This document shows, one piece after another, positions 1-31,410 of a stretch of DNA of 57,074 nucleotides (its first letter is position 1; each line of letters starts with the position of its first letter). Below the pieces are notes generated by a model that made no database searches, was not told the origin of the DNA, and worked only from the letters and a program-made list of their open reading frames with translations. A program made the position numbers and the translations under genes. Origin of the DNA: a virus; UHGV virus genome UHGV-2195224; one strand, given 5' to 3'.

Positions 1-426
1 GCCAGCGTATGTCCAGCGCCGTAGCTGATCACATGCGCCTTTGATATCGCCCTGGTTTATTTTGCGAAGAAGCGTCGATGTTCTGAAATTGCCAGCGCCC
101 ACGTTGTAAACGAACGAGTAAAGAGCGCCGCGCGTTGTTTCCGGTATATCGACTTTGATGTACGGGTTAATTTGTCTGGCGACAGTGGCAAGGTCTTTAT
201 TCAGGAGGGCTTTGCATTCTGCTTCGGTATACGTTTTACCGAGCATGATGTCTTTTCCGGTGTGTCCGTGACATACAGTCCATACGCCAACGATATCTTT
301 GTATGGTATGTAGCTGACACCTTCCAGGCCATCGTCACCACTCGGACCAGTGATGAGCACAGACGCTATGGCAACAGCCCCACCACCAATAGCAGCAGCA
401 ATAGCCTTGCGTAATGATGGCGACAT
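1..426 (-). CDS. rrrD: SAR endolysin (phage 21 R / DLP12 RrrD-like lysozyme), C-terminus cut by window edge
   Basis: Minus-strand translation from ATG at 424-426 reads [59 protein letters not shown]...; N-terminal signal-anchor-release segment plus lysozyme core; start overlaps holin stop. Confidence 0.85.
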
Positions 427-12940: not shown

Positions 12941-12944
12941 TTTC

Positions 12945-12971: not shown

Positions 12972-13054
12972 GCCTCCCCTCATCACATAAACCGTTCAAA
13001 AAACCACCACGACCTCGCTTCAGTTATCGCTATGCGATGCAAGTCACAAAATTA

Positions 13055-13624: not shown

Positions 13625-13699
13625 TCCCCTTTCCTGTTTTCCTAATCAGCCGGGCATTTCGCGGGCGATATTTTCACAGCCATTTTCAGGAGTTCAGCC

Positions 13700-13996
13700 A
13701 TGAACGCTTATTACATTCAGGATCGTCTTGAGGCTCAGAGCTGGGCACGTCACTACCAGCAGATCGCCCGTGAAGAGAAAGAGGCAGAACTGGCAGACGA
13801 CATGGAAAAGGGTCTGTCCCAGCACCTGTTTGAATCACTCTGCATCGATCATTTGCAACGCCACGGGGCCAGCAAAAAAGCCATTACCCGTGCGTTTGAT
13901 GACGATGTTGAGTTTCAGGAGCGCATGGCAGAACACATCCGGTACATGGTTGAAACCATTGCTCACCATCAGGTTGATATTGATTCAGAGGTATAA
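13700..13996 (+). CDS. gam: Gam (RecBCD inhibitor), short GamS form
   Basis: 98-aa [63 protein letters not shown]...; in-frame stop upstream excludes the long form. Confidence 0.9.
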
Positions 13997-14001
13997 AACG
14001 G

Positions 14002-14787
14002 ATGAGTACAGCACTCGCAACGCTGGCAGGGAAGCTGGCTGAACGTGTCGGCATGGATTCTGTCGACCCACAGGAACTGATCACCACTCTTCGCCAGACA
14101 GCATTTAAAGGCGATGCCAGCGATGCGCAGTTCATCGCATTGTTGATCGTCGCCAACCAGTACGGCCTTAATCCGTGGACGAAAGAAATTTACGCCTTCC
14201 CTGATAAGCAGAACGGCATCGTTCCGGTGGTGGGCGTTGATGGCTGGTCCCGCATCATCAATGAAAACCAGCAGTTTGATGGCATGGACTTTGAGCAGGA
14301 CAATGAATCCTGTACATGCCGGATTTACCGCAAGGACCGTAATCATCCGATCTGCGTTACCGAGTGGATGGATGAATGCCGCCGCGAACCATTCAAAACC
14401 CGCGAAGGCAGAGAAATCACCGGCCCGTGGCAGTCGCATCCCAAACGGATGTTACGGCATAAAGCCATGATTCAGTGTGCCCGTCTCGCCTTCGGATTTG
14501 CTGGTATCTATGACAAGGATGAAGCCGAGCGCATTGTCGAAAATACTGCATACACTGCAGAACGTCAGCCAGAACGCGACATCACTCCGGTTAACGATGA
14601 AACCATGCAGGAGATTAACACTCTGCTGATCGCCCTGGATAAAACATGGGATGACGACTTATTGCCGCTCTGTTCCCAGATATTTCGCCGCGACATTCGC
14701 GCATCGTCAGAACTGACACAGGCCGAAGCAGTGAAAGCTCTTGGATTCCTGAAACAGAAAGCCACTGAGCAGAAGGCGGCAGCATGA
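14002..14787 (+). CDS. bet: Bet / Red-beta single-strand annealing recombinase
   Basis: 261-aa [69 protein letters not shown]... Confidence 0.9.
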
Positions 14788-15464
14788 TACCGGACATTAT
14801 CCTGCAGCGTACCGGGATCGACGTGAGAGCTGTCGAACAGGGGGATGATGCATGGCACAAATTACGGCTCGGCGTCATCACCGCTTCAGAAGTTCACAAC
14901 GTGATAGCAAAGCCCCGCTCAGGAAAGAAGTGGCCTGACATGAAAATGTCCTACTTCCACACCCTGCTGGCTGAGGTTTGCACCGGTGTGGCTCCGGAAG
15001 TTAATGCTAAGGCGCTGGCCTGGGGAAAACAGTACGAGAACGACGCCAGAACCCTGTTTGAATTCACTTCCGGCGTGAATGTTACTGAATCCCCGATCAT
15101 CTATCGCGACGAAAGTATGCGCACCGCCTGCTCTCCCGATGGTTTATGCAGTGACGGCAATGGCCTTGAGCTGAAATGCCCGTTTACCTCCCGGGATTTC
15201 ATGAAGTTCCGGCTCGGTGGTTTCGAGGCCATAAAGTCGGCTTACATGGCCCAGGTGCAGTACAGCATGTGGGTGACGCGAAAAGATGCCTGGTACTTTG
15301 CCAACTATGACCCGCGTATGAAGCGTGAAGGACTGCATTATGTCGTGGTTGAGCGGGATGAAAAGTACATGGCGAGTTTTGACGAGATGGTGCCGGAGTT
15401 CATCGAAAAAATGGACGAGGCACTGGCTGAAATTGGTTTTGTATTTGGGGAGCAATGGCGATGA
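14784..15464 (+). CDS. exo: lambda exonuclease (Exo / Red-alpha)
   Basis: 226-aa [68 protein letters not shown]...; overlaps bet stop. Confidence 0.9.
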
Positions 15465-15643
15465 CGCATCCTCACGATAATATCCGGGTAGGCGCGATCA
15501 CTTTCGTCTACTCCGTTACAAAGCGAGGCTGGGTATTTCCCGGCCTTTCTGTTATCCAAAATCCACTGAAAGCCCAGCGGCTGGCTGAGGAGATAAATAA
15601 TAAACGAGGGGCTGTATGCACAAAGCATCTCCCGTTGAGTTAA
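15455..15643 (+). CDS. small lambdoid early protein (lambda orf61-like)
   Basis: 62-aa [34 protein letters not shown]...; immediately after exo. Confidence 0.45.
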
Positions 15644-15807
15644 GAACGAGTATCGAGATGGCACATAGCCTCGCTCAAATTGGAGTCAGGTTTGTGCCAA
15701 TACCAGTAGAAACAGACGAAGAATTTCATACGTTAGCCACATCCCTTTCACAAAAGCTGGAAATGATGGTGGCGAAAGCAGAAGCAGATGAGAGAGACCA
15801 GGTATGA
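15616..15807 (+). CDS. small lambdoid early protein (lambda orf63-like)
   Basis: 63-aa [40 protein letters not shown]... Confidence 0.45.
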   Translation: MHKASPVELRTSIEMAHSLAQIGVRFVPIPVETDEEFHTLATSLSQKLEMMVAKAEADERDQV

Positions 15808-15883
15808 CAACCACTGAATGCATTTTTCTGGCAGCGGGCTTCATATTCTGTGTGCTTATGCTTGCCGACATGGGACTTGTTCA

Positions 15884-16099
15884 ATGACACCTCAGCAAGA
15901 AAACGCCCTTCGCAGTATTGCCCGTCAGGCTAATTATGAAATCAAAAAAGCCAGACAGCAGTTTCCGGATAAAAACGTCGATGACATTTGCCGTAGCGTA
16001 CTGAAGAAGCACCGCGAAACGGTAACGCTGATGGGATTCACACCGACTCATTTAAGCCTGGCGATCGGCATGTTAAACGGCGTCTTTAAGGAACGGTGA
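15884..16099 (+). CDS. small hypothetical early protein
   Basis: internal ATG MTPQQENALRSIARQANYEIKKARQQFPDKNVDDICRSVLKKHRETV... Confidence 0.4.
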   Translation: MTPQQENALRSIARQANYEIKKARQQFPDKNVDDICRSVLKKHRETVTLMGFTPTHLSLAIGMLNGVFKER

Positions 16100-16121
16100 A
16101 CATGAAAAACAAAATCATCAT

Positions 16122-16148
16122 GGAGCTACAGGCTCCTTTTTTATTATT
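16122..16148 (+). terminator. possible intrinsic terminator
   Basis: hairpin ggagctacaggctcc followed by TTTTTTATTATT. Confidence 0.45.
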
Positions 16149-16197
16149 CGCATTCACCCTCAAGCGTATTAACCAACAATTCAGGGATTAATGAAAG

Positions 16198-16416
16198 ATG
16201 GCAGACATCATTGATTCAGCATCAGAAATTGAAGAATTACAGCGCAACACAGCAATAAAAATGCGCCGCCTGAACCACCAGGCTATATCTGCCACTCATT
16301 GTTGTGAGTGTGGCGATCCGATAGATGAACGAAGACGCCTGGCCGTTCAGGGTTGTCGGACTTGTGCAAGTTGCCAGGAGGAGATCGAACTTAAGAACAA
16401 ACAATGGGGACTGTGA
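16198..16416 (+). CDS. TraR/DksA-family C4 zinc-finger protein
   Basis: 72-aa ORF with CCECGDPIDERRRLAVQGCRTCASC (two CxxC pairs). Confidence 0.7.
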   Translation: MADIIDSASEIEELQRNTAIKMRRLNHQAISATHCCECGDPIDERRRLAVQGCRTCASCQEEIELKNKQWGL

Positions 16417-16463
16417 TGGCCTCAAAGCAGCAAATTTCAACATCGTCCAACTGAGGTGTAAAA

Positions 16464-16703
16464 ATGTTCAGAATCATTTTTCCTAACACCTGGTACGTCG
16501 ACCACCACGGCACTCCCTGCAAAATCCTGCGTTCTACCCACAACAAAGTTCACTACATCCGAAAAGGCAGAACATGTATCGCCAGCATGTTCCGCTTTAA
16601 TCATGACTTTGAACCTGTGAATAAAGCTGATGCAGATCGGATAGCAGAAGAGATCGAAACGGCAGAACACATTAAGAAGTTACGTGCCATACGCAGGAAA
16701 TAG
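16464..16703 (+). CDS. hypothetical small protein
   Basis: 79-aa ORF with SD gaggtg; MFRIIFPNTWYVDHHGTPCKILRSTHNKVHYIRKG... Confidence 0.4.
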   Translation: MFRIIFPNTWYVDHHGTPCKILRSTHNKVHYIRKGRTCIASMFRFNHDFEPVNKADADRIAEEIETAEHIKKLRAIRRK

Positions 16704-16842
16704 AAAAATTGATAAATTCAATACTGCATTTCTCAGCATTAAATTTATCTCTATGACCAGTCAAGAGATGTACCTGCCATGAGCTTAATATCATGTCAGA
16801 TATATCGGTCACAAACTCCCTCAGCAGCTAAGAGGAGGACAA

Positions 16843-17079
16843 ATGTCTCGACTAATCACTTTACAGGACTGGGCTAAAGAAGAATTTGGGGACTTAGCAC
16901 CAAGTGAGCGAGTTCTGAAAAAATACGCGCAAGGGAAAATGATGGCCCCACCCGCTATAAAAGTTGGTCGCTACTGGATGATTGACCGAAATTCCCGTTT
17001 TGTAGGAACGCTTGCAGAACCGCAACTCCCAATAAACGCAAACCCAAAACTCCAACGGATAATCGCTGATGGCTGCTAG
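16843..17079 (+). CDS. xis: excisionase-like protein
   Basis: 78-aa ORF with strong SD aggagg, directly upstream of and overlapping int; homologous to 55721-55966. Confidence 0.6.
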   Translation: MSRLITLQDWAKEEFGDLAPSERVLKKYAQGKMMAPPAIKVGRYWMIDRNSRFVGTLAEPQLPINANPKLQRIIADGC

Positions 17080-18211
17080 ACCCCGATCTCACAAAATCTC
17101 TATACCCAATTTATATTGCAAATTAGATAAGCGAACCGGAAAGGTATATTGGCAATACAAACATCCACTATCCGGTCGTTTTCATAGCTTAGGAACTGAT
17201 GAGAATGAAGCAAAACAAGTTGCTACTGAAGCAAATATCATTATTGCTGAACAACGTACCCGACAAATATTAAGCGTCAATGAGCGTCTGGAAAGAATGA
17301 AAGGCAGGCGCTCAGACATTACGGTGACAGAATGGCTTGATAAATATATTTCTATCCAGGAGGACAGGCTGCAACATAATGAACTAAGACCCAACTCCTA
17401 TCGGCAAAAAGGCAAACCCATTCGTCTTTTCCGTGAGCATTGTGGAATGCAACACCTCAAGGATATTACCGCACTTGATATTGCCGAAATAATTGATGCT
17501 GTAAAGGCTGAAGGTCATAACAGGATGGCGCAAGTCGTGAGAATGGTGTTAATCGACGTCTTCAAAGAAGCACAACACGCAGGACATGTTCCGCCAGGAT
17601 TTAACCCAGCGCAGGCAACAAAACAACCGCGAAATCGAGTAAACCGCCAAAGATTATCACTGCCCGAATGGCAGGCAATATTTGACAGCGTAAGCAGACG
17701 GCAGCCCTATTTAAAATGTGGGATGCTACTTGCTCTTGTCACTGGACAACGTTTAGGCGATATCTGCAATTTGAAATTCTCTGATATCTGGGACGACATG
17801 TTGCACATTACTCAGGAAAAAACCGGTTCAAAACTTGCTATTCCGCTTAACCTGAAATGCGATGCTCTGAATATTACCCTTCGTGAAGTTATATCTCAGT
17901 GCAGGGATGCTGTTGTTAGTAAATATCTGGTCCATTACCGTCACACAACCTCTCAAGCAAACAGAGGAGACCAGGTTTCTGCGAATACTCTGACAACGGC
18001 TTTTAAAAAGGCCAGGGAAAAATGTGGCATAAAATGGGAGCAAGGAACTGCGCCCACATTTCATGAGCAGCGATCTCTGTCAGAACGGTTATATCGGGAA
18101 CAGGGTCTGGATACGCAAAAGTTGTTAGGCCATAAATCCAGAAAAATGACCGACCGATACAATGATGATCGTGGTAAAGACTGGATTATCGTAGATATCA
18201 AAACAGCATAG
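17069..18211 (+). CDS. int: tyrosine integrase (lambda Int family), icd-targeting type
   Basis: 380-aa ORF; catalytic-domain motifs ...LVTGQRLGDI..., ...HEQRSL..., ...LLGHKSRKMTDRY...; adjacent to the icd-derived att core; paralogous to 55947-57074. Confidence 0.9.
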   Translation: MAARPRSHKISIPNLYCKLDKRTGKVYWQYKHPLSGRFHSLGTDENEAKQVATEANIIIAEQRTRQILSVNERLERMKGRRSDITVTEWLDKYISIQEDRLQHNELRPNSYRQKGKPIRLFREHCGMQHLKDITALDIAEIIDAVKAEGHNRMAQVVRMVLIDVFKEAQHAGHVPPGFNPAQATKQPRNRVNRQRLSLPEWQAIFDSVSRRQPYLKCGMLLALVTGQRLGDICNLKFSDIWDDMLHITQEKTGSKLAIPLNLKCDALNITLREVISQCRDAVVSKYLVHYRHTTSQANRGDQVSANTLTTAFKKAREKCGIKWEQGTAPTFHEQRSLSERLYREQGLDTQKLLGHKSRKMTDRYNDDRGKDWIIVDIKTA

Positions 18212-18220
18212 AAAATAGCC

Positions 18221-18258
18221 AGTTTTGGGGAAGGGTTTTGGGGAAAGTTTTGGGGAAG
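18221..18258. repeat. three tandem direct repeats (a/g)gttttggggaa(g/a), candidate Int arm-type sites
   Basis: agttttggggaag / ggttttggggaaa / gttttggggaag directly after the int stop. Confidence 0.4.
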
Positions 18259-18279
18259 ATTTTACATCATCATAAAACA

Positions 18280-18305
18280 ACGGGCGTGTTATACGCCCGT
18301 TTCAA
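18280..18305. terminator. bidirectional hairpin between int and the icd fragment
   Basis: stem acgggcgt/acgcccgt with gttat loop, flanked by AT-rich tracts. Confidence 0.45.
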
Positions 18306-18324
18306 TATTTAACACATGTAGAGA

Positions 18325-18489
18325 TTACATGTTCTTGATGATCGCGTCACCAAACTCTGAACATTTCAGCAGTTTAGCGCCTTCCATCAGACGTTCGAAG
18401 TCATAGGTTACGGTCTTCGCGTTGATTGCGCCTTCCATACCTTTAACAATCAGGTCTGCGGCTTCAGTCCAGCCCATATGGCGCAGCAG
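18325..18489 (-). pseudogene. icd: isocitrate dehydrogenase (icd) 3-prime-terminal fragment = prophage att core
   Basis: Minus-strand translation [54 protein letters not shown] then stop; an in-frame TAA sits immediately upstream so it is not fused to an icd body. Confidence 0.8.
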
Positions 18490-18933
18490 TAGTTAGATGG
18501 TTCATATACAACCGCATGATAAATAAAAATAATCCTATAATTTTATTGTAAATCAACTGGCTTTTATCTTTCCCCTAACCTATTGATTATCAATGTATGT
18601 TTTTTGGTTTTGATAACCGTTTTAGAGGGCAAAAACAAGTGCCTGTACCTATCAGCCCCTTCACGGCAAAGGGATTTTAAATCATGCGTGTTTTCACAAA
18701 CTATCAATGGCTTAACTAAATTTTTCGCCAATAACGTACGCTGTGAGTGAGAGGTGGATATGAAGTTACACACTCCCGGAAAATAAAGAATTGAGCGTTA
18801 TCTCATGCTATTAATGAAAAGTGTTTGCTTAATAGATTACATATAACTATGATTCAAGCCCAATTAAAGTCGTGTGTCTTTGGCTTAAATTGGCAAACAA
18901 ACAATCAAGTCAAGAATATAAAGGAACTATTCA

Positions 18934-19902
18934 ATGAATAAGAATTATAAAACGTTTAAACTTGAACTATGGGAGAAGTTTAAGCATCAATGTGCTTACT
19001 GTGGCACTAAACTTTATGAACCATTGATGGCGGATGTTGATCGTTTTTTCCCAAAATCAAAGTATACTGACTTCCAAGATGCTACAGACAACCTGCTCAT
19101 CGCTTGTAAGGCATGTAGCATGATTAAAAAAGATCAGTTTCCTCTCGATGAAAATGGCAAACCATTACTTCTAAATCCTTTAAATGAAAGTTTTTCAGAA
19201 CATATAAAACAAAATAAAAATGGATATTTAGAAGGTTTAACTGAGCGAGGACATGCGACTATAGATATATTACAGTTGAATAGACCTTCATTAATTGAAC
19301 AGCGCATTCTAGATGTTATTGATATGCAGTACTCTGATGATCGAACGCTATCTGAACGAGATGTCTATATGACATTCCAAAATAGTATGCAGAACGCCAT
19401 AAAACTAAATGATGCTCAGTTAAAAATTGATAGCACTTTACAAATACAAATGTCGTATATGCTATATGCCAATACAATAACTTCCTTGGAAACATATTTA
19501 TGTGACAGATTTATTTCCCTAATTCATGGTAGCCAAACTAATTTGAGAAATTTTGTTGAAACCTTCAAAGATTACAATACAGAAAAATTCTTACTTTCTG
19601 AATTATTTATAAGGCATGAACAAATAGAGTCTCAAGCGATAGAGTCTATGAAGAGTGTTCTTTATCATAATCTGCCAAAAGTAAGTGGCATGTATCGAGA
19701 TACCTTTGGTATTAAATTCCCTGTTTTCACAGAAGTTTATAAAAGCGTGTTAATTAGGCATGACTTAGTTCATCGAGCAGGTAAAACAAAAAATGGTAAT
19801 TTTCATAAGTTAGATTCAGAGTCAGTTAAAGATGTTATCAAAAAATGCTGTGACTTGGTTGAACAACTAGAAAAAGAGCTTAAAGATTGTGCATCATTCT
19901 AG
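18934..19902 (+). CDS. uncharacterized protein: N-terminal HNH-like Cys4 zinc-finger domain plus C-terminal helical domain with R-x4-H (HEPN-like) motif
   Basis: 322-aa AT-rich ORF; CAYCG...DVDRFFPKSKY...DNLLIACKACSMIKKD (Arg where the catalytic His is expected); C-terminal ...SVLIRHDLVHRAGK...; SD aagga. Confidence 0.55.
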   Translation: MNKNYKTFKLELWEKFKHQCAYCGTKLYEPLMADVDRFFPKSKYTDFQDATDNLLIACKACSMIKKDQFPLDENGKPLLLNPLNESFSEHIKQNKNGYLEGLTERGHATIDILQLNRPSLIEQRILDVIDMQYSDDRTLSERDVYMTFQNSMQNAIKLNDAQLKIDSTLQIQMSYMLYANTITSLETYLCDRFISLIHGSQTNLRNFVETFKDYNTEKFLLSELFIRHEQIESQAIESMKSVLYHNLPKVSGMYRDTFGIKFPVFTEVYKSVLIRHDLVHRAGKTKNGNFHKLDSESVKDVIKKCCDLVEQLEKELKDCASF

Positions 19903-20095
19903 GTAATTGCCACCAAATCGAAGGTGATCGCGCTTGCGGTCACCAAAAGTAATAAACTATTCATTCCCATTCGATCATCTGAACCAACACAATTTTATTT
20001 AATAAAGTTGACCTACTTCATTATTTGATACCCATCCAATGTGCGCAAGGGCTGCTTCTGGCACATGGTTACCCTTGATGAGAAGGTAGATCACC

Positions 20096-20219
20096 GCTAT
20101 GGGGTGTCGGGGGCGGAGGTTCAAATCCTCTCGTGCTGACCAAAAATCCTCGAAGAACCAGCCTGTTACGGCTGGTTTTTTTTGCCTGTTTTCTGAACGG
20201 GGAAGCAATGGGGAAATTA
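20096..20219 (+). repeat. direct repeat copy 1: 3-prime 45 nt of a tRNA-Pro gene (to ACCA at about 20142) plus its terminator and flank
   Basis: ctatggggtgtcgggggcggaGGTTCAAATCCtctcgtgctgACCA then aaccagcctgttacggctggttttttt; no 5-prime tRNA half upstream. Confidence 0.7.
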
Positions 20220-20405
20220 GCTTACGATTGACCCCACTGCGAAAAGCGCAGATTTTTATCAATGGACGTACATAGGGTAGATAAGGCACAATACTGCTTC
20301 AATGTCGTCTGATGGTATTGTAATACTAATTACATCAGATGATTTAACTAGATTAGTTCTTTATAGAAATCATTCTTGAATATTAATTGGCTGACTGAGG
20401 TTTTT

Positions 20406-21191
20406 ATGGATGAAAAATACAGAAGATTTGTTGATGAGGTTGACTTTTCAAGACAATTATTAGGCATAGGGCTCACTTCCCTAAGGAAAGCAAATTTTGC
20501 AAGTAGAGGATTGTATTTTCAAGCATTATCCGGCATCAGTTTAGGATTAGAAAGGCTTATGAAACTTTGCCTTATGCTTGATGATTATAATAAAAATGGA
20601 AAATATACATCACGCAAAAAATTAAGAGATTACGGTCATAACTTAAGCAAGTTATTCAACCTAGTCATTGAGAGAGTTGATTCTCCCTCTGGCTTAAATG
20701 AAATTCACTACAGAGTGATGGAGTTGTTAACTAATTTTGCAAATTCATCAAGATATAGTAATATTGATTTCATTACTAATGACAACGACAATGATCCCAT
20801 GAAGCAATGGTATAATGAAATCGATAAGAGCATTTACGATAAAATATTAACAAAAAGACAAAAAAATATAATTGATAAAAAATGCGAGCAATACCGAAGC
20901 TATGGTGAAACACTGCCATGCTATGTGCTTGGATATTATGATGAAGACAGAAACCATATAAACTCTGCAGGGGATTTAAATTATTTACTTAAAAGAAGTG
21001 AAATGCTTGCTGGTTATCGCACTTTATTAGTTATTCATATCATAGAATGCATCTATAACATATTAGACTCAATGACAGTTCAAGCAAAAGATAATCACTT
21101 CCACCATCTTGAATTAGGTCGTTTTTTTGCAACCATCATTTATGGCTCTGATAGAGACAAAATCAATAGAAAAAATTTTATCCGTATGTGA
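20406..21191 (+). CDS. uncharacterized AT-rich protein (about 261 aa from ATG at 20406) bracketed by tRNA-Pro-fragment repeats
   Basis: SD gagg 6 nt upstream; MDEKYRRFVDEVDFSRQLLGIGLTSLRKANFASRGLYFQALSGISLGLERLMKL...; no recognised catalytic motif. Confidence 0.55.
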   Translation: MDEKYRRFVDEVDFSRQLLGIGLTSLRKANFASRGLYFQALSGISLGLERLMKLCLMLDDYNKNGKYTSRKKLRDYGHNLSKLFNLVIERVDSPSGLNEIHYRVMELLTNFANSSRYSNIDFITNDNDNDPMKQWYNEIDKSIYDKILTKRQKNIIDKKCEQYRSYGETLPCYVLGYYDEDRNHINSAGDLNYLLKRSEMLAGYRTLLVIHIIECIYNILDSMTVQAKDNHFHHLELGRFFATIIYGSDRDKINRKNFIRM

Positions 21192-21267
21192 GACTACGAA
21201 GCGACCGACGAATGATGCTATCAACTTACTGTAGACGCATATAGGCCATCAGAATATTAGCACGACA

Positions 21268-21389
21268 CTATGGGGTGTCGGGGGGCGGAGGTTCAAATCC
21301 TCTCGTGCCGACCAAAAATCCTCGAAGAACCAGCCTGTTACGGCTGGTTTTTTTGCCTGTTTTCTGAACGGGGAAGCAATGGGGAATTA
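21268..21389 (+). repeat. direct repeat copy 2: tRNA-Pro 3-prime fragment (to ACCA at about 21314) plus terminator and flank
   Basis: Near-identical to 20096-20219 with a few substitutions/indels (e.g. ctgacca vs ccgacca). Confidence 0.7.
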
Positions 21390-21588
21390 CAGGGGAAAAA
21401 CCCCGTCAAATGTTGCCCCCGTATCGCTAGCACACAATGATTAAGTATCTTTTTCACTTTCGGAATTCATCAATTCACAAAACCATCATTCCGATTTACC
21501 TTACATGCTCCTTTTAAATCTTTAACGGTGTGCACCACTTTTTCTAACTGCCCTATACTTTCAGTCTGACATACGGCTGGAGGTTTCT

Positions 21589-22257
21589 ATGTGTGGACGC
21601 TTTTCACAGTCAATGACCCGTGAAGATTATCTTGCCCTTCTCGCTGATGAATCAGAACGCGATATTCCATACGATCCAGAACCCATCGGAAGATTCAACG
21701 TAGCGCCAGGAACAAAAGTTCTGCTTCTGAGCGAACGTGATGAGCAGTTGCATCTTGATCCAGTTATCTGGGGATACGCCCCCGGTTGGTGGGATAAACC
21801 GCCGCTCATTAATGCACGGTCTGAAACTGCTGCCACCAGCAGAATGTTTAAACCACTCTGGCAGCATGGCCGCGCAATTTGCTTTGCTGATGGATGGTAT
21901 GAGTGGAAAAAGGAAGGCGACCAAAAACAACCCTACTTTATTCACCGGGCAGACGGTCAGCCGATTTTTATGGCGGCGATCGGCAGCACACCATTCGAAC
22001 GTGGAGATGAAGCAGAAGGTTTCCTGATAGTTACAGCTGCAGCTGACAAAGGACTGGTTGATATTCACGACAGACGACCACTGGTACTGCTACCGGAAGC
22101 CGCGCGTGAATGGATGAGGCAGGATGTTGGAGGGAAAGAAGCAGCGGAAATTGCAGCCGACGGTGTTGTACCGGCTGATAAATTTATATGGCACGCCGTA
22201 ACGCGTGCCGTCGGGAATGTGAAAAATCAGGGCGCCGAACTAATAACGCCAATATGA
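21589..22257 (+). CDS. SOS-response-associated peptidase (SRAP / YedK-like abasic-site processing protein)
   Basis: 222-aa ORF starting MCGRFSQS (catalytic Cys2) with SD ggagg; occupies the slot where a Pin/Gin invertase gene would be expected. Confidence 0.7.
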   Translation: MCGRFSQSMTREDYLALLADESERDIPYDPEPIGRFNVAPGTKVLLLSERDEQLHLDPVIWGYAPGWWDKPPLINARSETAATSRMFKPLWQHGRAICFADGWYEWKKEGDQKQPYFIHRADGQPIFMAAIGSTPFERGDEAEGFLIVTAAADKGLVDIHDRRPLVLLPEAAREWMRQDVGGKEAAEIAADGVVPADKFIWHAVTRAVGNVKNQGAELITPI

Positions 22258-22451
22258 TTACATCACCGGACAATCATCAAACTCCGCGTTCCTCGCATCA
22301 TTAATGATGTAAGTAATCACCCCGAATATCGCGGGAGCAGAACCGTAACCGTCATCATCTACTGGTAGCATCTCCCTTCTCCCGCTCTCCAAATTAATCA
22401 GGTGGTGTTGAGGATGAGTCCGATATCGCTTGATCCTGAACTCCCCGTCGA

Positions 22452-22934
22452 TTGCACATATCAGCAGTGAGCCATCGCAGTTTGGGAGAAGGTGCTCCAG
22501 CTATTGGCGTTCCGTTCTTCTGGGCGTCCGCTGCAATGCCAAATACTGTAATCGACAGCTGGTCCAGTATGGTGTTTTTGAAGTTCAACGGGGCGAAATT
22601 TTCTGCCACTGATTACCCTGTGCTGGCGAAAGTGTTTCCGGCGTTGGCATTACCTGACGCACGCGGTGATTTCATTCGTGTCTGGGATGACGGGCGAGGT
22701 GCAGATGGTGGTCGCGAATTATTAAGCTGGCAGGCAGCTACAAACTTTTCTCAGTTTGCCGGGAATATAGGCGAAGGTGCGGGACACGCAATTAACTTTC
22801 ATGATGGCATCGCCGGAAATCAGCCAGGATTTTCACGATTTAATTTCACCAGTAACTCTGTGGGTGATGGTGTGAATTTTGTTGCTGTCAGACCGCGAAA
22901 TATTGCATTTAACTTTCTGGTGAGGGCTAAATAA
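22452..22934 (+). CDS. tail-fibre alternative C-terminal segment (silent inverted cassette)
   Basis: ...GEGAPAIGVPFFWASAAMPNTVIDSWSSMVFLKFNGAKFSATDYPVLAKVFPALALPDARGDFIRVWDDGRG...; begins at the inverted-repeat crossover half-site, no constant N-terminal part. Confidence 0.7.
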   Translation: MHISAVSHRSLGEGAPAIGVPFFWASAAMPNTVIDSWSSMVFLKFNGAKFSATDYPVLAKVFPALALPDARGDFIRVWDDGRGADGGRELLSWQAATNFSQFAGNIGEGAGHAINFHDGIAGNQPGFSRFNFTSNSVGDGVNFVAVRPRNIAFNFLVRAK

Positions 22935-23527
22935 TGAAACCTGTTTTTGATGAAAATGGGCTGGCTACAGTGCCGGGCGATATGCGTTGTTTTTATTATG
23001 ATGCTGAAACATCTGAGTATACGGGCTGGTCTGATGAATATATTAATACTGGCGTAAGTATGCCCGCCTGTTCAACTGGTATTGACCCGGGCGAAAACAT
23101 TCTGGGAAGAGTGACGGTATTTACAGGTAAGGGATGGAGCCATGAGGAAGACCATCGCAATGAGACTGTTTACTCAATCGAAAATGGTGCAGCTGTTACA
23201 GTGGATTATATCGGTGCCATCAAAGACGGTTATGTCACGCTTTCACCGTTAACGCCATACGATAAATGGGATGGTGAGAAATGGGTGACAGACACTGAGG
23301 CACAACACAGTGCCGCAGTAGACGCGGCAGAAGCACAGCGCCAGTCACTGATTGATGCAGCAATGGCTTCCATTAGTCTGATTCAGCTGAAATTACAGGC
23401 CGGACGGAAACTGACTCAGGCAGAAACAACCCGACTTAACGCCGTGCTGGATTACATTGACGCGGTGACGGCAACAGATACCAGCACCGCGCCGGATGTC
23501 ATCTGGCCTGAACTGCCGGAGGCGTAG
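22934..23527 (+). CDS. tail fibre assembly protein (Tfa; partner of the silent fibre cassette)
   Basis: 197-aa ORF MKPVFDENGLATVPGDMRCFYYDAETSEYTGWSDEYINTG... Confidence 0.8.
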   Translation: MKPVFDENGLATVPGDMRCFYYDAETSEYTGWSDEYINTGVSMPACSTGIDPGENILGRVTVFTGKGWSHEEDHRNETVYSIENGAAVTVDYIGAIKDGYVTLSPLTPYDKWDGEKWVTDTEAQHSAAVDAAEAQRQSLIDAAMASISLIQLKLQAGRKLTQAETTRLNAVLDYIDAVTATDTSTAPDVIWPELPEA

Positions 23528-23927
23528 GCCATTCAATATCGGGTGCTGTTGACGTATCAACACGCATCAGCAGCACACGGTATTTCTTCCATTGGGTGAG
23601 AGTTGTAGCTTCTTCATCAGTTGCGATATCAGCATCAACAGCATCCTGACGCCAGGATATTTCACTGTCAGCCTTTTCCCGTAATTGGGATTTTTTAACT
23701 TCAGCAATAGCTATTAATTCCTTTTTGGTCGGCTGAGGAATATCTATCAGTGCTGGTTTTCCATTCAGTGTTCCAATCTGTTTTCCTGGTGGAATATCCA
23801 TAAATAACTTTTTATGTTCTTCCTCACTGACTATTACACCATCATCAGGCCACAGACCTGATGCCTCAAATTTTTCTTTCTCCGATATGGGGAAAAAGCC
23901 ATTTGCTTTAGCGCTCCATACGTACAT
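23499..23927 (-). CDS. tail fibre assembly protein (Tfa; partner of the expressed fibre)
   Basis: 142-aa ORF MYVWSAKANGFFPISEKEKFEASGLWPDDGVIVSEEEHKKLF...; C-termini of the two convergent Tfa genes share ...RVDTSTAPDIEWP... Confidence 0.8.
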   Translation of the reverse strand: MYVWSAKANGFFPISEKEKFEASGLWPDDGVIVSEEEHKKLFMDIPPGKQIGTLNGKPALIDIPQPTKKELIAIAEVKKSQLREKADSEISWRQDAVDADIATDEEATTLTQWKKYRVLLMRVDTSTAPDIEWPTPPAVQAR

Positions 23928-23928
23928 A

Positions 23929-24513
23929 TCAATACCCCACCGCTATAATGTCCACATTAAATCCCCCGGGACCTGCCTGCCAGATGCTGGCCCCTGTTAA
24001 TGATTTTGTTTGATGAACAACCGCCACATTTGCTGGTGATTGTGTTTCAGTTGTTACAGTACCGATATCATTCCAGTTAATTGAGATGGAATAGTTCGTT
24101 GTTGTAAACGACCGGGGGAAAGTTATATGTCTTACATTAGTGCCAATAGGAAATCCAAGATAAACACGCTGAATTATCATTCCTCCAGGTAACATAACCC
24201 AGTTAGCACCTTCTCCCAAACCAAGGTTTTCGAGAGCCGTTTTCACCGTGCCATCCGATTTGATATCGCCAAACGGATTCTTGCGGCTTAACAGCAGCGC
24301 ACGAAGCGCTGTAAGCAGCTGGTCATGCCGCCCCTTCTCCAGGCTGGCACCGGATGCCTCCACAACACTGCAAAGTTCCTCCTGCAACATGTCAAAGTAG
24401 TCATCATCCAGATCGGTGGCAGGTGTGCCGGTCTGGGGGTTACCACGGGTAAAACCGTTCTTACCCGCGCCGAACTTATCCTTCTGCGCGGTTTTCGTGT
24501 CTATACGATGCAT
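23929..24513 (-). CDS. tail fibre protein (Mu S / e14 StfP-like), expressed orientation
   Basis: 194-aa [50 protein letters not shown]...; contains the 26-bp crossover site at the constant/variable junction. Confidence 0.8.
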
Positions 24514-24516
24514 GGA

Positions 24517-25101
24517 TTACTCCGGATATTTAAAAATTACGTAGGTATGCGACGGGCAGAGTTTGTTAAGCACACACTCGACAACGGTGTCGCCCCAGAT
24601 ACGCAGTGCGGAATCACAGGGATCGCCACATGTCATCCAGGTGGTGTTGGTGGCGGCTGGCATGTTGACCTGCCAGTAATACCGCCATTCCGGCGCATTC
24701 ACCGCGTCAGTACAGGCCGATGAGCAGGTGAACGTGCTTTTGTCGTATCGCGTGATGGTGGCGTCTGGTCTGCCCAGGGCAGCAAGCTGTGCAAGGTAAA
24801 AATCCTCATTGATGCCGCCCGCCAGGTTAACCTTCGCATCCAGTCGTTGCTGACGCTGGCGAAGGGTCTGTGTCCCTGCGGGAATACATTCATCCGGCAG
24901 GCCGCACAGACGCTCCCAGCGATTTATCAGTTCGGTGGTGGTGCGCGGATCCAGCTCCCGCATCAGGGCATCCGCACGCTGATGAACGCGGGTTAATGAC
25001 GGTGCCGCACCGGCAATCGCCGGATCGCTGGCTGACCACGCCGGACCGGGGGGCAACAGTGCCGACAACAGATGGATGTAATCATCGTTTGTCACGTCCA
25101 T
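24517..25101 (-). CDS. baseplate/tail protein (Mu gp48 / e14 YmfQ-like, DUF2313)
   Basis: 194-aa ORF directly upstream of the fibre gene; [31 protein letters not shown]... Confidence 0.65.
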
Positions 25102-26150
25102 GAAATCGTCCCCAGTACCGCCAGTTCATTTTTTGCAATGGAGATATTGTCCGCCGGTGCAAGCAACTGATGGCTGTATTCCCCGTTCGCACCGGAAATC
25201 GCCTCACTGATACGCGACACCTTCAGTTCTCCCTGCGGATAACCATCACGCAGCAGGAACGAACGCAACTCGGCGGTGATGGCAGCCCGTATTTCCGGTG
25301 TGTCCGGCGTCACGCGGATATGAAAATCCACTTTATGCGCCACCGGCCTGAATACATACAAATCAGAGCCTGCCACCGGGGCCAGTGGCTCAATGTGTTG
25401 TCTTGCCGCCGTTTCCGTTGATTCTTCCGGAATGGGATTAATCAGGTCACTGCTGGCAATCATCACACCGACAGTCCCCGTTCCCATCCAGTGGCGGTAT
25501 GTCCATGCACGGGTAATGCCGGGCACTTCTTTAGCCCAGACTACATAGTCCCCGTCAGCCCCGCCCTGAGGCGTCCCGTAATACCGCTCAATGACGCGGG
25601 CGCGCCACGTTTCCAGCTCTTCAGTATCAAATCCACCTGTCAGAGTGTCTGCCACGCCGGAAGACGGCAGACCATTCACCGGCGTGACCAGGATTAATGA
25701 CGTACCGTCGTCAGCGTTACCGACCGCTCCTGCACTTGAGCAGGCGATCGGCACGCGCAGGACACCACCGGCGCTGGTTGCATCGGCAGTTGCCGTGTAC
25801 TGAACCAGGTCATCGCGCTGAATAACACTCCCGGCGGTCACCTTCAGGCCATCGCTGACACCTTCCCAGCGCATATACCCGCTGGCAGCCGTGGCCCCCT
25901 TGCGCGGACACCGTTTCATCGCAGCATGTCGCGCCAGCCAGGACTCATCGCACAGGTCAGGCAGCATGTTCATTGCCAGATAATCGATGTAACCGTAAAC
26001 CGTATGCAGCGCCGCCGCATACACCTTTGCCCGCACGTCTTCATCCATGCGCCGGAGCGTGTCGCTGACGTCCAGCCTGGCGAATAAATCGTTACGGAGC
26101 ATACTGATATTTTCTGCCAGCGTCGGGCGCTGAAATTCACTGTCCGCCAT
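25092..26150 (-). CDS. baseplate J-like protein (Mu gp47 / P2 gpJ family)
   Basis: 352-aa ORF; synteny within Mu-type baseplate module. Confidence 0.75.
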
Positions 26151-26565
26151 GCGTTATCGCACTCCACAGATCATCAAAAGAAATCATTACCGGTCCGTCA
26201 CGACGCCAGAGAGTGATACTGTTACCCAGTTCATTAATCCCGGTGCGGCGGATATCCAGATCAATACGGGACACCACACCGTCATCAATCATCCATTGCA
26301 GGCATTCGCGGATATACCCCCTTACCGTCTGCACCAGCTGATTGGTCAGTTTGCCGCGCTGAAGCAGCCACAGCCGGGAGCCGTAACGGTCATTCTGTAC
26401 CGCAGGCCAGGTATCCCCCCACCATCCCATCGGGACGTCGGCATTGTCATCAGGCTCCGCCCGCCGCCAGGTGAACAGGGAAATCACCACGGCGCGGGTC
26501 AGCGGATCCAGCGGTGCGCTGGCGCAGGTGCGTTTACCGTTCACCGTCAGCCACAGTTCCATCAT
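26137..26565 (-). CDS. baseplate protein (Mu gp46 / gpW-like)
   Basis: 142-aa ORF between spike and J-like genes. Confidence 0.6.
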   Translation of the reverse strand: MMELWLTVNGKRTCASAPLDPLTRAVVISLFTWRRAEPDDNADVPMGWWGDTWPAVQNDRYGSRLWLLQRGKLTNQLVQTVRGYIRECLQWMIDDGVVSRIDLDIRRTGINELGNSITLWRRDGPVMISFDDLWSAITHGGQ

Positions 26566-27110
26566 GCCTCCATCGCTTTATCCGGTTTGTCGGTGTTACT
26601 GCCCTGACCGTTCTCTCTGTGACGATGGCCGTTATAGGCAAGCCGCATCGCTGACATGGTGGTGCCGCCGGAGTCGCACAGGTCTTTCACCTGTCCGGTC
26701 ACTTCCAGGTCCATTTCAAAACGTGCTCTGGGCGCATTGCGAAACGTGATCGTTTTACCTGCACCGTCCACCACGATCCCCTCCCGGGTCAGCGTCACAG
26801 ACTGCCCCTGATCGTCATAGACAGCCACCTCACCCGTCTGCAGCCCTTTCAGGCGGTAGCGCCGGTCCGACACCGTAACAACCACCGCATGAGAACGGTC
26901 GCCATCCGGAAACAACACCACCGCTTCCGCACCGCTGTTTGCCCTTGCGGTAAAACCGTAGGGTTCAAGATGTTCAACCCCGGCTTTGGGTTCACCGGCA
27001 ATCAGGGACACATCCACGGTCTGACATTTCGTGGCGGCACTGATGCTTTTCACCACTGCCCGCCCAATCAGGCCGAGAAGTTGTCGCTGCATGGCTTCAA
27101 TCGTCCTCAT
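26562..27110 (-). CDS. baseplate assembly protein V / spike (Mu gp45-like)
   Basis: 182-aa ORF; synteny. Confidence 0.65.
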   Translation of the reverse strand: MRTIEAMQRQLLGLIGRAVVKSISAATKCQTVDVSLIAGEPKAGVEHLEPYGFTARANSGAEAVVLFPDGDRSHAVVVTVSDRRYRLKGLQTGEVAVYDDQGQSVTLTREGIVVDGAGKTITFRNAPRARFEMDLEVTGQVKDLCDSGGTTMSAMRLAYNGHRHRENGQGSNTDKPDKAMEA

Positions 27111-28189
27111 CAGAACGGGTCCTCCTGTACTCTGGCTTTTTTCTTTTTCCGCGCGCCGGGGTCTTCAGGTTCAGGCAGATAAGCATCAGGCGGGCCGACA
27201 CGGATTTCCGTCAGGGTGCCGTTCTGGTCCTGAGTAAACGTGACTTCCGAAACAAGCAGTTCGGTATTGTCAAAACCACAGACCGGATCAAAGACAATCA
27301 CCCGCTGGTTGGGTTGCCACAGCGTACCGTTACCCTGTCGCCAGCCCTGCACCACATAGGTGGTTTCATCCGTCCGCGCCGCCCGTTGCCGGGCTTCAAA
27401 GTCCGCACGGGCAATACAGCCTGCCCCCGTAGCCTGCCCTGTCTGCCTGATATACATCGGACGGTAACGGGCAATAAATGCGTCCTCTGTGCGGGCCCGC
27501 AGCGCGGTGGTGGTGGCCTCACCGAAATCATCGTCGTTTCCGGCACGCTGCCCCGCCACCTGGTAAACTGAAAACCGATCCCGGATACTCTTCTCCGTAT
27601 CACAGGAAAGGATGTTTTCCCCAAGTACCAGCGCGGTATGTGCCCGCGTTGAGCCAATACCACCAATCACCAGCCTGCCGTGCGGGTCGTCATAAGCCAG
27701 CGCCTGCTGCTGACCGAGTATTTTGTTGATCACCTCAATCACCGTTTCACCGTGATCAGGCTGGACATCCGGAATAACACCCGACGGCGCATCGCTGTTC
27801 ACCACCTCAATGCCGAAAGGCGCAGCAAGCGCCTGCGCAATCTGTACCAGCGATCGTCCGTTAAACTGTGTCGGTTCGGCTGCACAGTCAATCAGGTCAG
27901 CAGTCAGACTACGTCCGGCAATACCGGTGCTGACCGAACGGGCATCGTAACGAACGGGGGTCGCCTCCACCCAGCCGGTGATCACCAGCTCATAACCAAT
28001 CAGCACTTCCACTTTTGAACCATTTTTAATGCGCGGCTGAAGCGTGGTGATACCCTCATCTCCCGGCCACTGGCGGGTGATCTCCACGCTGAAATCCCGC
28101 GCCAGCCGTTCAATACCGGCACCGATGCGCACCGATGTCCAGCCATTCCACTCCCGGCCATTTACCCGTAGCGTGACGTTATCGTTCAT
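27110..28189 (-). CDS. baseplate hub / tail protein (Mu gp44 P-like, P2 gpD family)
   Basis: 359-aa ORF MNDNVTLRVNGREWNGWTSVRIGAGIERLARDF... Confidence 0.7.
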   Translation of the reverse strand: MNDNVTLRVNGREWNGWTSVRIGAGIERLARDFSVEITRQWPGDEGITTLQPRIKNGSKVEVLIGYELVITGWVEATPVRYDARSVSTGIAGRSLTADLIDCAAEPTQFNGRSLVQIAQALAAPFGIEVVNSDAPSGVIPDVQPDHGETVIEVINKILGQQQALAYDDPHGRLVIGGIGSTRAHTALVLGENILSCDTEKSIRDRFSVYQVAGQRAGNDDDFGEATTTALRARTEDAFIARYRPMYIRQTGQATGAGCIARADFEARQRAARTDETTYVVQGWRQGNGTLWQPNQRVIVFDPVCGFDNTELLVSEVTFTQDQNGTLTEIRVGPPDAYLPEPEDPGARKKKKARVQEDPF

Positions 28190-29514
28190 TGCACTGGCAC
28201 CTTCAGAGGGATCACCGGCACAAAGCCGGGATGCGTAATGGCATTACGCCGGATAATGTCCGCGTCACGCGCCGCGTTATCAAACCAGGTCGCCGCCAGC
28301 ACCAGCGCGGGTAAAACCTCATCCGGTGTGCGCTGAATGATCCGTGCAGACTGTTCAAGGCGCGTGTTGATATCCGCATTCAGATCTGCTTTCACCCGGC
28401 GCAGCGCCAGAAACAGCGCATCGCTGGTTGTACGGGACAACTCCTTATCAATTGCCGTATTCAGTGTGTCGCGAATGTCAGTCAGTTCTTCCCACGTCGG
28501 CAGGTCAACCGTGTTTTTCACCGCCGGTGCATTGTTCAGTGCCGGATGCGTGACGGAAGGCCAGCCAGTGCTCTGCGCGGGTGTTGTTGCCTGCCCCACT
28601 GCGGAATTCTGCATCACCGCGGAAGTTGTTGGCGCAGGCAATCGGGTGACGGCATACGCCGCTTCGCTGATTGCGGTCGTACGAAGGGTGCTGGCAACCA
28701 CGTTACGCTGCTGCGTCGCCGTGGCGGTGGTTTTACTGTCCGTTTTCCAGACGCCGCGCGGTTGCAGATCGCTGCCGAGGCTGACACCGGAAAGCGTTTT
28801 GATCATGGTGACCAGGTCGCTGGCGTTACCATAAAGGCGTTTCCCGGTACGCCACATTTTTTGCACCTGCTCAACGAAGTTTTTGCCTGACGATGGCGGA
28901 GGCAGAAGTACCGAGATATCCCCCTGCAACAGTCTGGCGGCATCCGATACGGCAGAATCCACCACTTTCATCGCATCAGAAACATACCCAAGCATTGTGC
29001 TGGCATTACCGACGACGTCGTTCTGCACAAAATCCGCCACGCCATCGATACTGAAACCACTGAAACTGTCACTGATGCAGTCATCCAGTGCAGAACAGGA
29101 TGACATCAGCGTCTGCGCCGTCGCCGCACCTGAAGTGGGGTAAGAGAGTTCTCCCGCTTCGACAAACTTCAGGTCAAAGCGGACAATACGCCCTTCACTC
29201 TTCGATGTGCTGACCCGAACTTCTCCGTCAACACAGACTTTCAGCTCACCGTAAGTCGGATGGACAAGCGTGCCGGGACCGGGTTTATTCAGCGCGTCAA
29301 TCAGGCGATCGCGCTGGTCAAAGCAGTCATCTCCCACCACATAAGCTGTGATGGACGGGCGGAAAGTGATTTTCCCCAGGTCTTCGGTATAGGGTTTGTC
29401 GCAGTTCGGGTATTCGTGCGTTTCCACACGACGACCGGTTCCCGCACTTTCTTCTTCAACCTTAAACGGCACACCGCGAAATGACGCGTCCTGAAGTCTG
29501 TCTTTCCACGTCAT
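28186..29514 (-). CDS. DNA circularisation protein (Mu gp43 N-like)
   Basis: From internal ATG: MTWKDRLQDASFRGVPFKVEEESAGTGRRVETHEYPNCDKPYTEDLGK... Confidence 0.7.
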   Translation of the reverse strand: MTWKDRLQDASFRGVPFKVEEESAGTGRRVETHEYPNCDKPYTEDLGKITFRPSITAYVVGDDCFDQRDRLIDALNKPGPGTLVHPTYGELKVCVDGEVRVSTSKSEGRIVRFDLKFVEAGELSYPTSGAATAQTLMSSCSALDDCISDSFSGFSIDGVADFVQNDVVGNASTMLGYVSDAMKVVDSAVSDAARLLQGDISVLLPPPSSGKNFVEQVQKMWRTGKRLYGNASDLVTMIKTLSGVSLGSDLQPRGVWKTDSKTTATATQQRNVVASTLRTTAISEAAYAVTRLPAPTTSAVMQNSAVGQATTPAQSTGWPSVTHPALNNAPAVKNTVDLPTWEELTDIRDTLNTAIDKELSRTTSDALFLALRRVKADLNADINTRLEQSARIIQRTPDEVLPALVLAATWFDNAARDADIIRRNAITHPGFVPVIPLKVPVQ

Positions 29515-29574
29515 ATAAACTCCGTACATAAAAAATCCCACCGGAGTGGGACTCATTAACAGATTAATTTTTCA

Positions 29575-31410
29575 TTACCTGCCAAAGCGCGTATAGCCAA
29601 CATCATGGCTGACATCAAAACCGCTGGATCGCGTTTCCATAACCCGCATACCCGGAGGCGAATTCACAAAAGAGACCTTGATCTCACCATCAACTTTTGG
29701 CGCAGAAGCTTTGTTAATCATGAAGGGATTCGGGCCTGTGGCATCGGAGGCGTTGTTTGACTGAGCCGGATCCACCGCCGGATAAGGTGTGTATCCCCGC
29801 GCCGGTATTCCCGTCCCATAAGCATCATAAGCACCCGCGCCCCACTGCGCAGAGTTAATGGCATCGACCGTGTCACCGGAACTGTCGGTAAACCACTCAA
29901 TAATTGGCTTCAGCTTGTCCCACATATCCTGAAACCACTTAACAACCGGCCCCCAGTTATTGATCACCATCCCCAGCGGCGACCAGGCAAAAACTTTCTT
30001 AAGGAGTTCCCAGCCGGCCTCAAAATAAGGACCAATGGTTTCCCAGAGTTTCTTAAAATAAGGTCCGACAACATCCCAGTTAGTGATAATTAATCCCGCA
30101 GCCAGGGCTATCGCCGTCGCAATCATGCCAATCGGCGTCATCGACATGATCCTGCTGACAATACTGATGGCACCGCCAACGCCCATCAATCCCAGTTTCA
30201 GAATCGCAAGACCGGCAGCAAGCCCGACGACGCCGCGAATAACCCGGGGATTTTCATCCGCAAACTTCGTGAATTTCTCCCCCAACTCCCCCAGCCATTG
30301 CGTGATATTTTTAGCGTCACCAGAAAATGCGCCGCCAATAGCTGCAAGACCGTTAGTTGCGGTCCCCGTCATTGCCTCCCACAGGTTGGACAGCGTACCA
30401 AGCTGTGCCTGAACACGTTTATTCAGGCTGGCCTGTTTATTCATCTTCTGCTGGATCTGATCGTAACCATCCTTCCCTTTATCGATCAGAGCATTGACCA
30501 CCTGAAGGGTTTCGGCATCATCACCAAATATTGCCTTAAGTACACCTGTTCGCTTAACGTCGGTCAGTTTTCGCAGCTTTGCCAGTTGCCTGAACATGTT
30601 ATCAAGACCGCCAAAACTCCCTTTGCCGTCAGTAAAATCGAGCTGCACTCCGAGTTTCTGGCGGGCCATAACTTTATTAACGTCCCTGATTTTCTTAACG
30701 CTTAATCCGGACTGGATAACTTTTCGCAGGGCATTACCTGCCGACTCCCCGTTCATCCCCATCTGATCCATCATGACGCTGATGGGGGCAAGGCTCTGTG
30801 CAGCCTGAAGACCATCCTTGTTCACCATCTTCAGAACAGAACTGGTTTTAGTGAAGAAGGACAACATGTTGGTATCGTCAACGCCCAGATAAAACGCCTT
30901 CTGGATAGTGTCGAACAGCCCCATCATGTCTTCTGACGCCGTTCCGGTAGCATCCTGCATCTTTGCAGCAAACTCAGCAGCCGCTTCCGGTGTTTTTTTC
31001 AGTTGTACCGCAAGATAGGCTGTCGCTTTACCCACACCACCCAGAATGTTTTCTGCCGGGATCCCCTGACGCACCAGCATCTGCATCATGTTCTGGAAAT
31101 CAGCCGTTGTACCGGGTAGCTGGTTACCCAGGCCAATAGCCAGTTTATTGATGTCCTGAAAGCGCTTTCCGACCTCACCGTTCGCATCCATCATGGCAAC
31201 TTTCAGCCCGGTGGCGGCGTTTTCCTGATCGGCATAAGATTTCAGGGAAAGCGTCAGACCCGCAGCCAGTCCGCCACCAAGCGCCAGCCCACCCTGTGAC
31301 GCTTCTTCCGCCTGGCGTTTAAATCCCCGGATTTTCTTTTGCATTTTCGACAGCGCGGGAGAAAGCCTGTCGACACCGGTGATCAACGCCTTAAGCTCAA
31401 ATTCAGCCAT
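29575..31410 (-). CDS. tail tape-measure protein
   Basis: 611-aa ORF with Ala/Gly-rich helical repeats and hydrophobic segments; between chaperone and baseplate genes. Confidence 0.8.
   Translation of the reverse strand: MAEFELKALITGVDRLSPALSKMQKKIRGFKRQAEEASQGGLALGGGLAAGLTLSLKSYADQENAATGLKVAMMDANGEVGKRFQDINKLAIGLGNQLPGTTADFQNMMQMLVRQGIPAENILGGVGKATAYLAVQLKKTPEAAAEFAAKMQDATGTASEDMMGLFDTIQKAFYLGVDDTNMLSFFTKTSSVLKMVNKDGLQAAQSLAPISVMMDQMGMNGESAGNALRKVIQSGLSVKKIRDVNKVMARQKLGVQLDFTDGKGSFGGLDNMFRQLAKLRKLTDVKRTGVLKAIFGDDAETLQVVNALIDKGKDGYDQIQQKMNKQASLNKRVQAQLGTLSNLWEAMTGTATNGLAAIGGAFSGDAKNITQWLGELGEKFTKFADENPRVIRGVVGLAAGLAILKLGLMGVGGAISIVSRIMSMTPIGMIATAIALAAGLIITNWDVVGPYFKKLWETIGPYFEAGWELLKKVFAWSPLGMVINNWGPVVKWFQDMWDKLKPIIEWFTDSSGDTVDAINSAQWGAGAYDAYGTGIPARGYTPYPAVDPAQSNNASDATGPNPFMINKASAPKVDGEIKVSFVNSPPGMRVMETRSSGFDVSHDVGYTRFGR

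Follow-up and report, generated by a model that had tools for sequence, protein, structure and literature searches.

The closest described relatives of the locus studied here are the G segment of phage Mu, inverted by Gin, the C segment of P1, inverted by Cin, and the P region of the e14 prophage of E. coli K-12 (stfP-tfaP / tfaE-stfE, pinE). In Mu and P1, a constant 5′ part of a fibre gene is followed by two convergent cassettes, each composed of a fibre C-terminus and a Tfa chaperone, together with 26-bp crossover sites; the invertase gene lies beside the distal site and carries an enhancer in its 5′ end. A functional switch of this Din family relies on two inverted 26-bp sites, each an imperfect dyad, an identical core dinucleotide in both, an adjacent serine invertase gene (~185 aa) and a Fis enhancer in cis, and is found in both orientations. 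With Hin, Gin and Cin, the strands cannot be religated after a single 180-degree exchange if the cores of the two sites differ. Iida and Hiestand-Nauer reportedly observed in the 1980s that Cin uses secondary ‘quasi’ sites at low frequency. In K-12, the deletion of pinE was shown to lock the P segment, and the inversion-dependent effect is lost upon deletion of stfE or stfP, either of which takes one repeat with it (Kirigo et al., NAR 2025, PMC12529663). In the same study, PinQ, which is encoded by another prophage, was shown to invert the e14 P segment in trans (PMC12529663).

Here, we analysed a stretch of viral DNA of 57,074 nucleotides (hereafter the window) and propose, with a probability of about 0.9, that it contains the P-type invertible segment of an e14-family prophage, locked by a single 1,503-bp deletion. 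The segment spans positions 22480-24236, within an e14-family prophage that occupies the window from 18.3 to 57 kb and is inserted at icd, as indicated by the duplicated icd 3′ end, an e14-type integrase and baseplate genes of the ymfQ/jayE type. This prophage combines an HK97-type head with a Mu-type contractile tail, and shares 96-100% identity with the prophage of E. coli fEC.1 in its head, tail and baseplate proteins (99-100% for the baseplate proteins). The features on which the analysis is based are the following:

18325-18477, minus strand: icd 3′ fragment, the e14-family attachment locus
21589-22257, plus strand: SRAP (YedK-like) gene (Pfam SRAP, E = 6.8e-51)
22258-22479, minus strand: 3′ remnant of an S24 peptidase (UmuD-like) gene, 73 codons and stop, matching the C-terminus of the 141-aa S24 protein of relative L017
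22480-22490, minus strand: inner half of the residual pin-proximal crossover site, TTCTCCCAAAC, 11 nt kept
22482-22934, plus strand: silent stfE-like cassette for a fibre C-terminus, 150 codons, lacking its own start codon
22934-23527, plus strand: Tfa chaperone of the silent cassette, 197 aa (Pfam Caudo_TAP, E = 3.8e-27)
23499-23927, minus strand: Tfa chaperone of the expressed cassette, 142 aa (Pfam Caudo_TAP, E = 6.6e-33)
23929-24513, minus strand: expressed tail-fibre gene, 194 aa, with a constant part (residues 1-~97, outside the segment) and a gp53-like variable part (residues ~98-194)
24211-24236, plus strand: intact 26-bp crossover site, TTCTCCCAAACC AA GGTTTTCGAGAG, at the constant/variable junction of the expressed fibre
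24517-25101, minus strand: YmfQ / Mu gp48-like baseplate gene (Pfam Phage_Mu_Gp48, E = 1e-26), product 100% identical to the fEC.1 protein
55947-57065: e14-type integrase, 93% identical to that of E. coli fEC.1

The cassettes are arranged as in Mu G, P1 C and e14 P: the segment encloses two convergent C-terminus and Tfa cassettes and excludes the constant 5′ part of the fibre gene. The YmfQ gene directly upstream of the fibre gene marks the late operon from which the fibre is expressed, and the Mu-type baseplate genes continue from there on the minus strand. Over its N-terminal 103 residues the expressed fibre differs from K-12 StfP at one position and diverges afterwards; its residues 108-194 match Gp53-like_C with 24.3 bits, just below the cut-off of 24.9. 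The silent cassette gives a weak match to the Pfam Collar family (19 bits for a cut-off of 24) and is identical to K-12 stfE at 73 of 139 positions, and the 197-aa Tfa shares 127 of 196 positions with TfaE. The silent cassette has neither its partner site nor the 13-codon ATG leader that, in the relatives, lies outside the segment.

The core AA of the intact site is located at 24223-24224, within codon Leu97 of the expressed fibre, and the site region is translated there as ALENLGLGE. All 26 positions are identical to the stfP-side site of K-12 e14, and likewise to the corresponding site of the fEC.1 prophage. At the other end of the segment, positions 22480-22496 comprise the residual inner half-site and 6 nt of common coding sequence, and form a perfect 17-nt inverted repeat with 24205-24221; by our own arithmetic, about 5e-4 such repeats are expected by chance per 4.2 kb. 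The outer half and the central dinucleotide of this site are gone: only 3 of the 12 outer positions match, and the core position reads GC (minus strand) versus AA in the intact partner. Indeed, when the 12-nt half-site TTCTCCCAAACC was searched with at most one mismatch in the 57 kb, it was found at two places only, the intact and the residual sites. The window thus has one full site and one half-site, which do not share a core dinucleotide. An earlier note, made from the letters of this DNA, had described the convergent fibre-C-terminus/Tfa cassettes, the 26-bp dyad at the constant/variable junction and a partner reduced to a 17-bp inverted match with one half-site, and the open reading frames, the Pfam matches and the sites themselves agree with this description on each count.

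The comparison with the pinE-stfE region of e14, which the same note had recommended, is informative. Both elements occupy icd, with genes arranged as ymfQ, fibre, tfa, tfa′, fibre′, pin; in intact relatives of the window, each of the two 26-bp sites matches its K-12 e14 counterpart exactly, and Pin shares 88% identity with PinE. Unlike e14, the window has no pinE and retains only half of the pinE-side site, carries a gp53-like cassette where K-12 has the StfP C-terminus, and has a Collar cassette that is 52% identical to stfE. Its prophage is also of full length (~39 kb), in contrast to the 15-kb e14 remnant, and the end module of the window and its relatives consists of SRAP, umuD′ and dinI, in place of mcrA in e14. 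The likeness to Mu and P1 extends to the baseplate and fibre module, the rest of the phage backbone being different; the fibres are much shorter here (194 or 248 aa) and the invertase is absent from the window.

This absence, already noticed from the open reading frames, was confirmed with a true Pin query: tblastn with the Pin of the fEC.1 prophage found no small serine invertase gene anywhere in the 57-kb window, and a search with an approximate Pin sequence found none either. The only serine recombinase of the window is the product of a YbcK-type gene in the neighbouring lambdoid prophage (6215-7741, minus strand). It was rejected as a candidate invertase, being a large recombinase of 508 aa (Resolvase, Recombinase and Zn ribbon) and not of the Din type.

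In a megablast search against 5,426 complete E. coli genomes, fEC.1 and CDF6 covered the whole query, in separate pieces, and their prophages (L001 and L002, respectively) were used as references for pairwise blastn. Window 18272-22480 corresponds to 3073-7281 of L001 (99.7% identity) and window 22480-30000 to 8784-16304 (99.8%); with CDF6, the left and right flanks are 99.6% and 98.5% identical. Colinearity with both genomes is broken only by 1,503 bp (L001 7282-8784) that are lacking at 22480|22481 of the window. Read base by base, the endpoints share 1 bp (G) of microhomology, and blastn of the 1,503 bp against the window revealed no relocated copy. In the relatives, this stretch contains, in order, the 5′ part of the S24 (UmuD-like) gene, a short ORF, dinI, a gene for a 183-aa invertase, a 13-codon ATG leader that belongs to the stfE-type ORF, and the outer half and core of the second crossover site, the full version of which reads TTCTCCCAAACC AA CGTTTATGAAAA in fEC.1, CDF6 and K-12. 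The invertase gene adjacent to the segment is present in L001, L002, L005 and others. Its product, Pin, has the Pfam domains Resolvase and HTH_7, and is identical to K-12 PinE at 160 of 181 positions and to Mu Gin at 145 of 183 (79%). The reading of the region as a fossil, locked switch of the Mu-G/P1-C/e14-P type, put forward in the earlier note, is therefore strengthened by close relatives in which the missing 1,503 bp, invertase included, are documented.

The same comparison led us to abandon one proposal of that note, namely that the SRAP gene had taken the slot of the invertase. In fEC.1 and CDF6 the SRAP gene is found at the same position, with pin 1.1 kb further on; it is a normal neighbour, and the slot itself has been deleted. 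SRAP is an ordinary accessory gene at this prophage end, outside the switch, which the deletion has brought to 225 bp from the silent cassette. No terminator-like site was found on the plus strand between the SRAP stop codon and the silent cassette, and read-through transcription into this cassette may therefore be possible.

In the intact relatives, SRAP is part of an accessory module with an SOS flavour, in which it is followed by a UmuD′-like S24 peptidase, DinI and then pin (L001 7059-8714; L017 4670-6337). The UmuD′-like peptidase of intact relatives has 141 aa and begins at a GFPSPA motif, and its gene is already frameshifted in fEC.1 and CDF6. A separate case was observed in GCA_964037355.1 (L011 5778-6963, equivalent to L020 1598-2783), in which an IS element encoding an rve-type transposase truncates pin to 125 aa; there, the segment has the orientation of the window (A). 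This is an independent route to invertase loss.

From this anatomy, we can propose how the element would have worked and how it was arrested. In the intact element, the serine invertase Pin would bind the two inverted 26-bp sites and, with the help of an enhancer that Fis binds within the 5′ end of the invertase gene, flip ~1.75 kb, which would join fibre codons 1-97 either to the gp53-like cassette and the 142-aa Tfa, or to the Collar-type cassette and the 197-aa Tfa. One 1,503-bp deletion at a 1-bp microhomology then took away pin, the enhancer region, dinI, the stfE-type ATG leader, the 5′ two-thirds of the UmuD-like gene and, from the pin-proximal site, the core together with the outer half. 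The fibre would thereby be fixed in its gp53-like form, leaving the Collar-type cassette and its Tfa as a silent fossil. As predicted from their sequence, neither the Collar cassette nor its Tfa nor the stfE-type leader fusion can then be expressed in the usual way.

Inversion itself is apparent among relatives in which pin is intact. Five of them have the segment in orientation A, as in the window (L001, L002, L018, L023 and L024), and six have it in orientation B (L005, L016, L017, L021, L022 and L025). In orientation B, the counterpart of the silent cassette is fused to the constant part to give a chimeric 248-aa fibre. E. coli AH01 carries the same prophage, with identical RefSeq accessions for the baseplate proteins, and an inverted segment: after ymfQ come the 248-aa fibre, whose end is the Collar cassette, and the 197-aa Tfa, and the gp53-like cassette adjoins pin. 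Both sites read the same in orientations A and B, and are regenerated unchanged after inversion because their two inner halves are identical.

The situation is different among genomes that carry the deletion. An identical 34-nt deletion junction was found in nine other assemblies (L008, L009, L010, L012, L013, L014, L034, L035 and L037), seven of them NCBI isolates and two ENA metagenome scaffolds; the carrier isolates include GCA_013064305.1 and GCA_047964525.1. In all nine, the segment is in orientation A and the spacing to the intact site is unchanged, and the junction predicted for the inverted state (…GAGCCATCGCAGTTTGGGAGAAGGTGCTAACTGG…) was found in none of them. Six carriers were compared with the window over 7.5 kb: five (L009, L010, L012, L013 and L014) show 0-4 substitutions in an ungapped count, from which L008 was left out owing to an indel offset. 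Over 21,080 positions, ENA scaffold ERZ28568594 and the window show 2 differences. Such near-identity points to one ancestral deletion event, and the shared orientation of the nine carriers may thus reflect common descent rather than nine independent tests. Some carriers have, like the window, a tandem lambdoid prophage upstream, and others have iraM or ycgX directly upstream.

At the scale of the 57-kb window, the switch is almost certainly locked, with no invertase, the putative enhancer gone, a random outer half-site and a GC core facing AA. With respect to the enhancer, pin and Mu gin are nearly identical over their first 100 bp, in keeping with the high conservation of the 5′ DNA of the two genes, and both contain two sites resembling the Fis consensus at the same positions (+22..36 and +71..85). 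In pin, these sites lie ~90-150 bp from the crossover site, a geometry shared with Hin, whose enhancer is ~100 bp from hixL. The 5′ region of pin lies within the deleted 1,503 bp and, if this assignment based on gin homology and consensus matches is correct, enhancer function would have been lost with it. Likewise, we infer that invertases supplied in trans would be unable to use the residual half-site.

The explanation that best survives next to a locked switch is that the segment still flips occasionally, through a Din-family invertase from another part of the genome (PinQ/PinR, or of the P2/Mu/P1 type) that uses the half-site as a quasi-site. The earlier note had kept such a rescue in trans as a caveat. 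In principle it is conceivable, because PinQ acts in trans across prophages on this very P segment in K-12 (PMC12529663), and the window retains a full inner half-site and the 17-nt inverted repeat. It is nonetheless less likely than was stated, and we consider it improbable: the outer half-site and the core are lost, wild-type invertases are inactive without an enhancer and the enhancer region is deleted, and none of the nine carriers is inverted, as opposed to the roughly 5:6 split among pin-intact relatives.

Even less probable is that the missing invertase is an assembly artefact, produced by a collapse or a mis-join around the invertible repeat. Invertible regions are a known source of misassembly, and the junction has no contiguous match in any of the 5,426 complete RefSeq E. 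coli genomes; an exact-match scan of the GTDB species-representative genomes gave no matches to it, and the allele was recovered solely by protein-identity look-ups in draft and metagenome assemblies. Against an artefact, the junction occurs in nine independently assembled records, and its endpoints fall in unique sequence with 1 bp in common, leaving no repeat to collapse.

As for polarity, we read the window as the deleted state because it keeps only the last 73 of the 141 codons of the S24 gene, whose product in L017 is a Pfam Peptidase_S24 protein, and half of a 26-bp dyad, its colinearity with L001 stopping at 7281; judged on these remnants, the direction of change is unambiguous. Accessory (‘moron’) modules are often acquired at prophage ends, but the opposite polarity, with an ancestral window and relatives that gained a umuD′-dinI-pin module by insertion, is the least credible of all, since the ‘insert’ would complete exactly both a mid-domain gene fragment and a half dyad, and K-12 e14 has the same complete site beside pinE.

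Having retained a deletion, we considered how it may have arisen. Its endpoint on the segment side lies 1-2 bp within the inner half-site, next to the core dinucleotide that serine invertases cut and 1-2 bp away from the phosphodiester cleaved by Pin at the core TT/AA, and a random endpoint would fall within 2 bp of the cleavage position with a chance of ~0.3% in a 1.5-kb neighbourhood. We therefore suggest, as a tentative and rather doubtful possibility, that the deletion is a scar of invertase chemistry, left by an aborted Pin double-strand break followed by resection on the pin side and microhomology end-joining. If so, the switch would have destroyed its own recombinase gene, and if the deletions of other pin-less elements likewise tended to end at this core, that would point to invertase-induced breaks as a recurrent cause of switch loss. 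Ordinary illegitimate recombination could also be at the origin of the deletion. We rejected a conservative exchange in which Pin would have recombined the pix site with a direct pseudo-site, as the register and one base do not fit: such an exchange predicts X12-NN-GGTTTGGGAGAA and the junction reads …GCAG-TTTGGGAGAA, with an A beside the core where a G is required.

The window switch, locked by its 1,503-bp deletion, is a decayed copy of a textbook system, and its kind is already known. It resembles a natural double version of the K-12 Delta-pinE and Delta-stfE/stfP mutants (PMC12529663). It differs from them in that a single natural deletion caused it and took the enhancer region and the stfE leader as well. 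Its significance hardly goes beyond annotation, where it provides an example of the decay of a host-range switch in which one deletion leads to the loss of enzyme, enhancer and half-site. A natural allele of this ‘locked’ kind, which at least nine other assemblies share, could also be used as a control when P-segment inversion and the reported PinQ/StfE2 anti-T2 effect are studied.

Several other observations were made in the window. Two prophages are arranged in tandem at icd (1-18477), a lambdoid element (integrase 17069-18211, excisionase 16843-17079) adjoining the icd 3′ fragment, followed by the e14-like prophage. On the other side of this fragment, at the position of mcrA in K-12 e14, lies a 322-aa ORF (18934-19902, plus strand) that is called an HNH endonuclease in RefSeq relatives and has no Pfam match here. 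Further on, a direct repeat of ~120 bp, 97% identical between its copies (20097-20219 and 21270-21389), flanks a 271-aa ORF (20376-21191) without Pfam match. Each copy contains a stretch resembling a tRNA 3′ end (GGTTCAAATCC…GACCA) and a terminator-like hairpin; ARAGORN and Rfam gave no match to the repeat, nor to any other part of the window. Together, the repeat and the ORF look like a small insertion that duplicated its target.

Finally, the prophage of the window is defective for a second reason. In the major capsid gene (35856-37060, minus strand), one A is lost in the A-run CCGAAAGGG, which gives ORFs of 267 and 134 aa where one of 401 aa is expected. This frameshift is real, because the exact 267-aa product recurs on 11 other contigs. 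Four other genomes with the same pin deletion have an intact capsid gene, suggesting that the frameshift arose later than this deletion.
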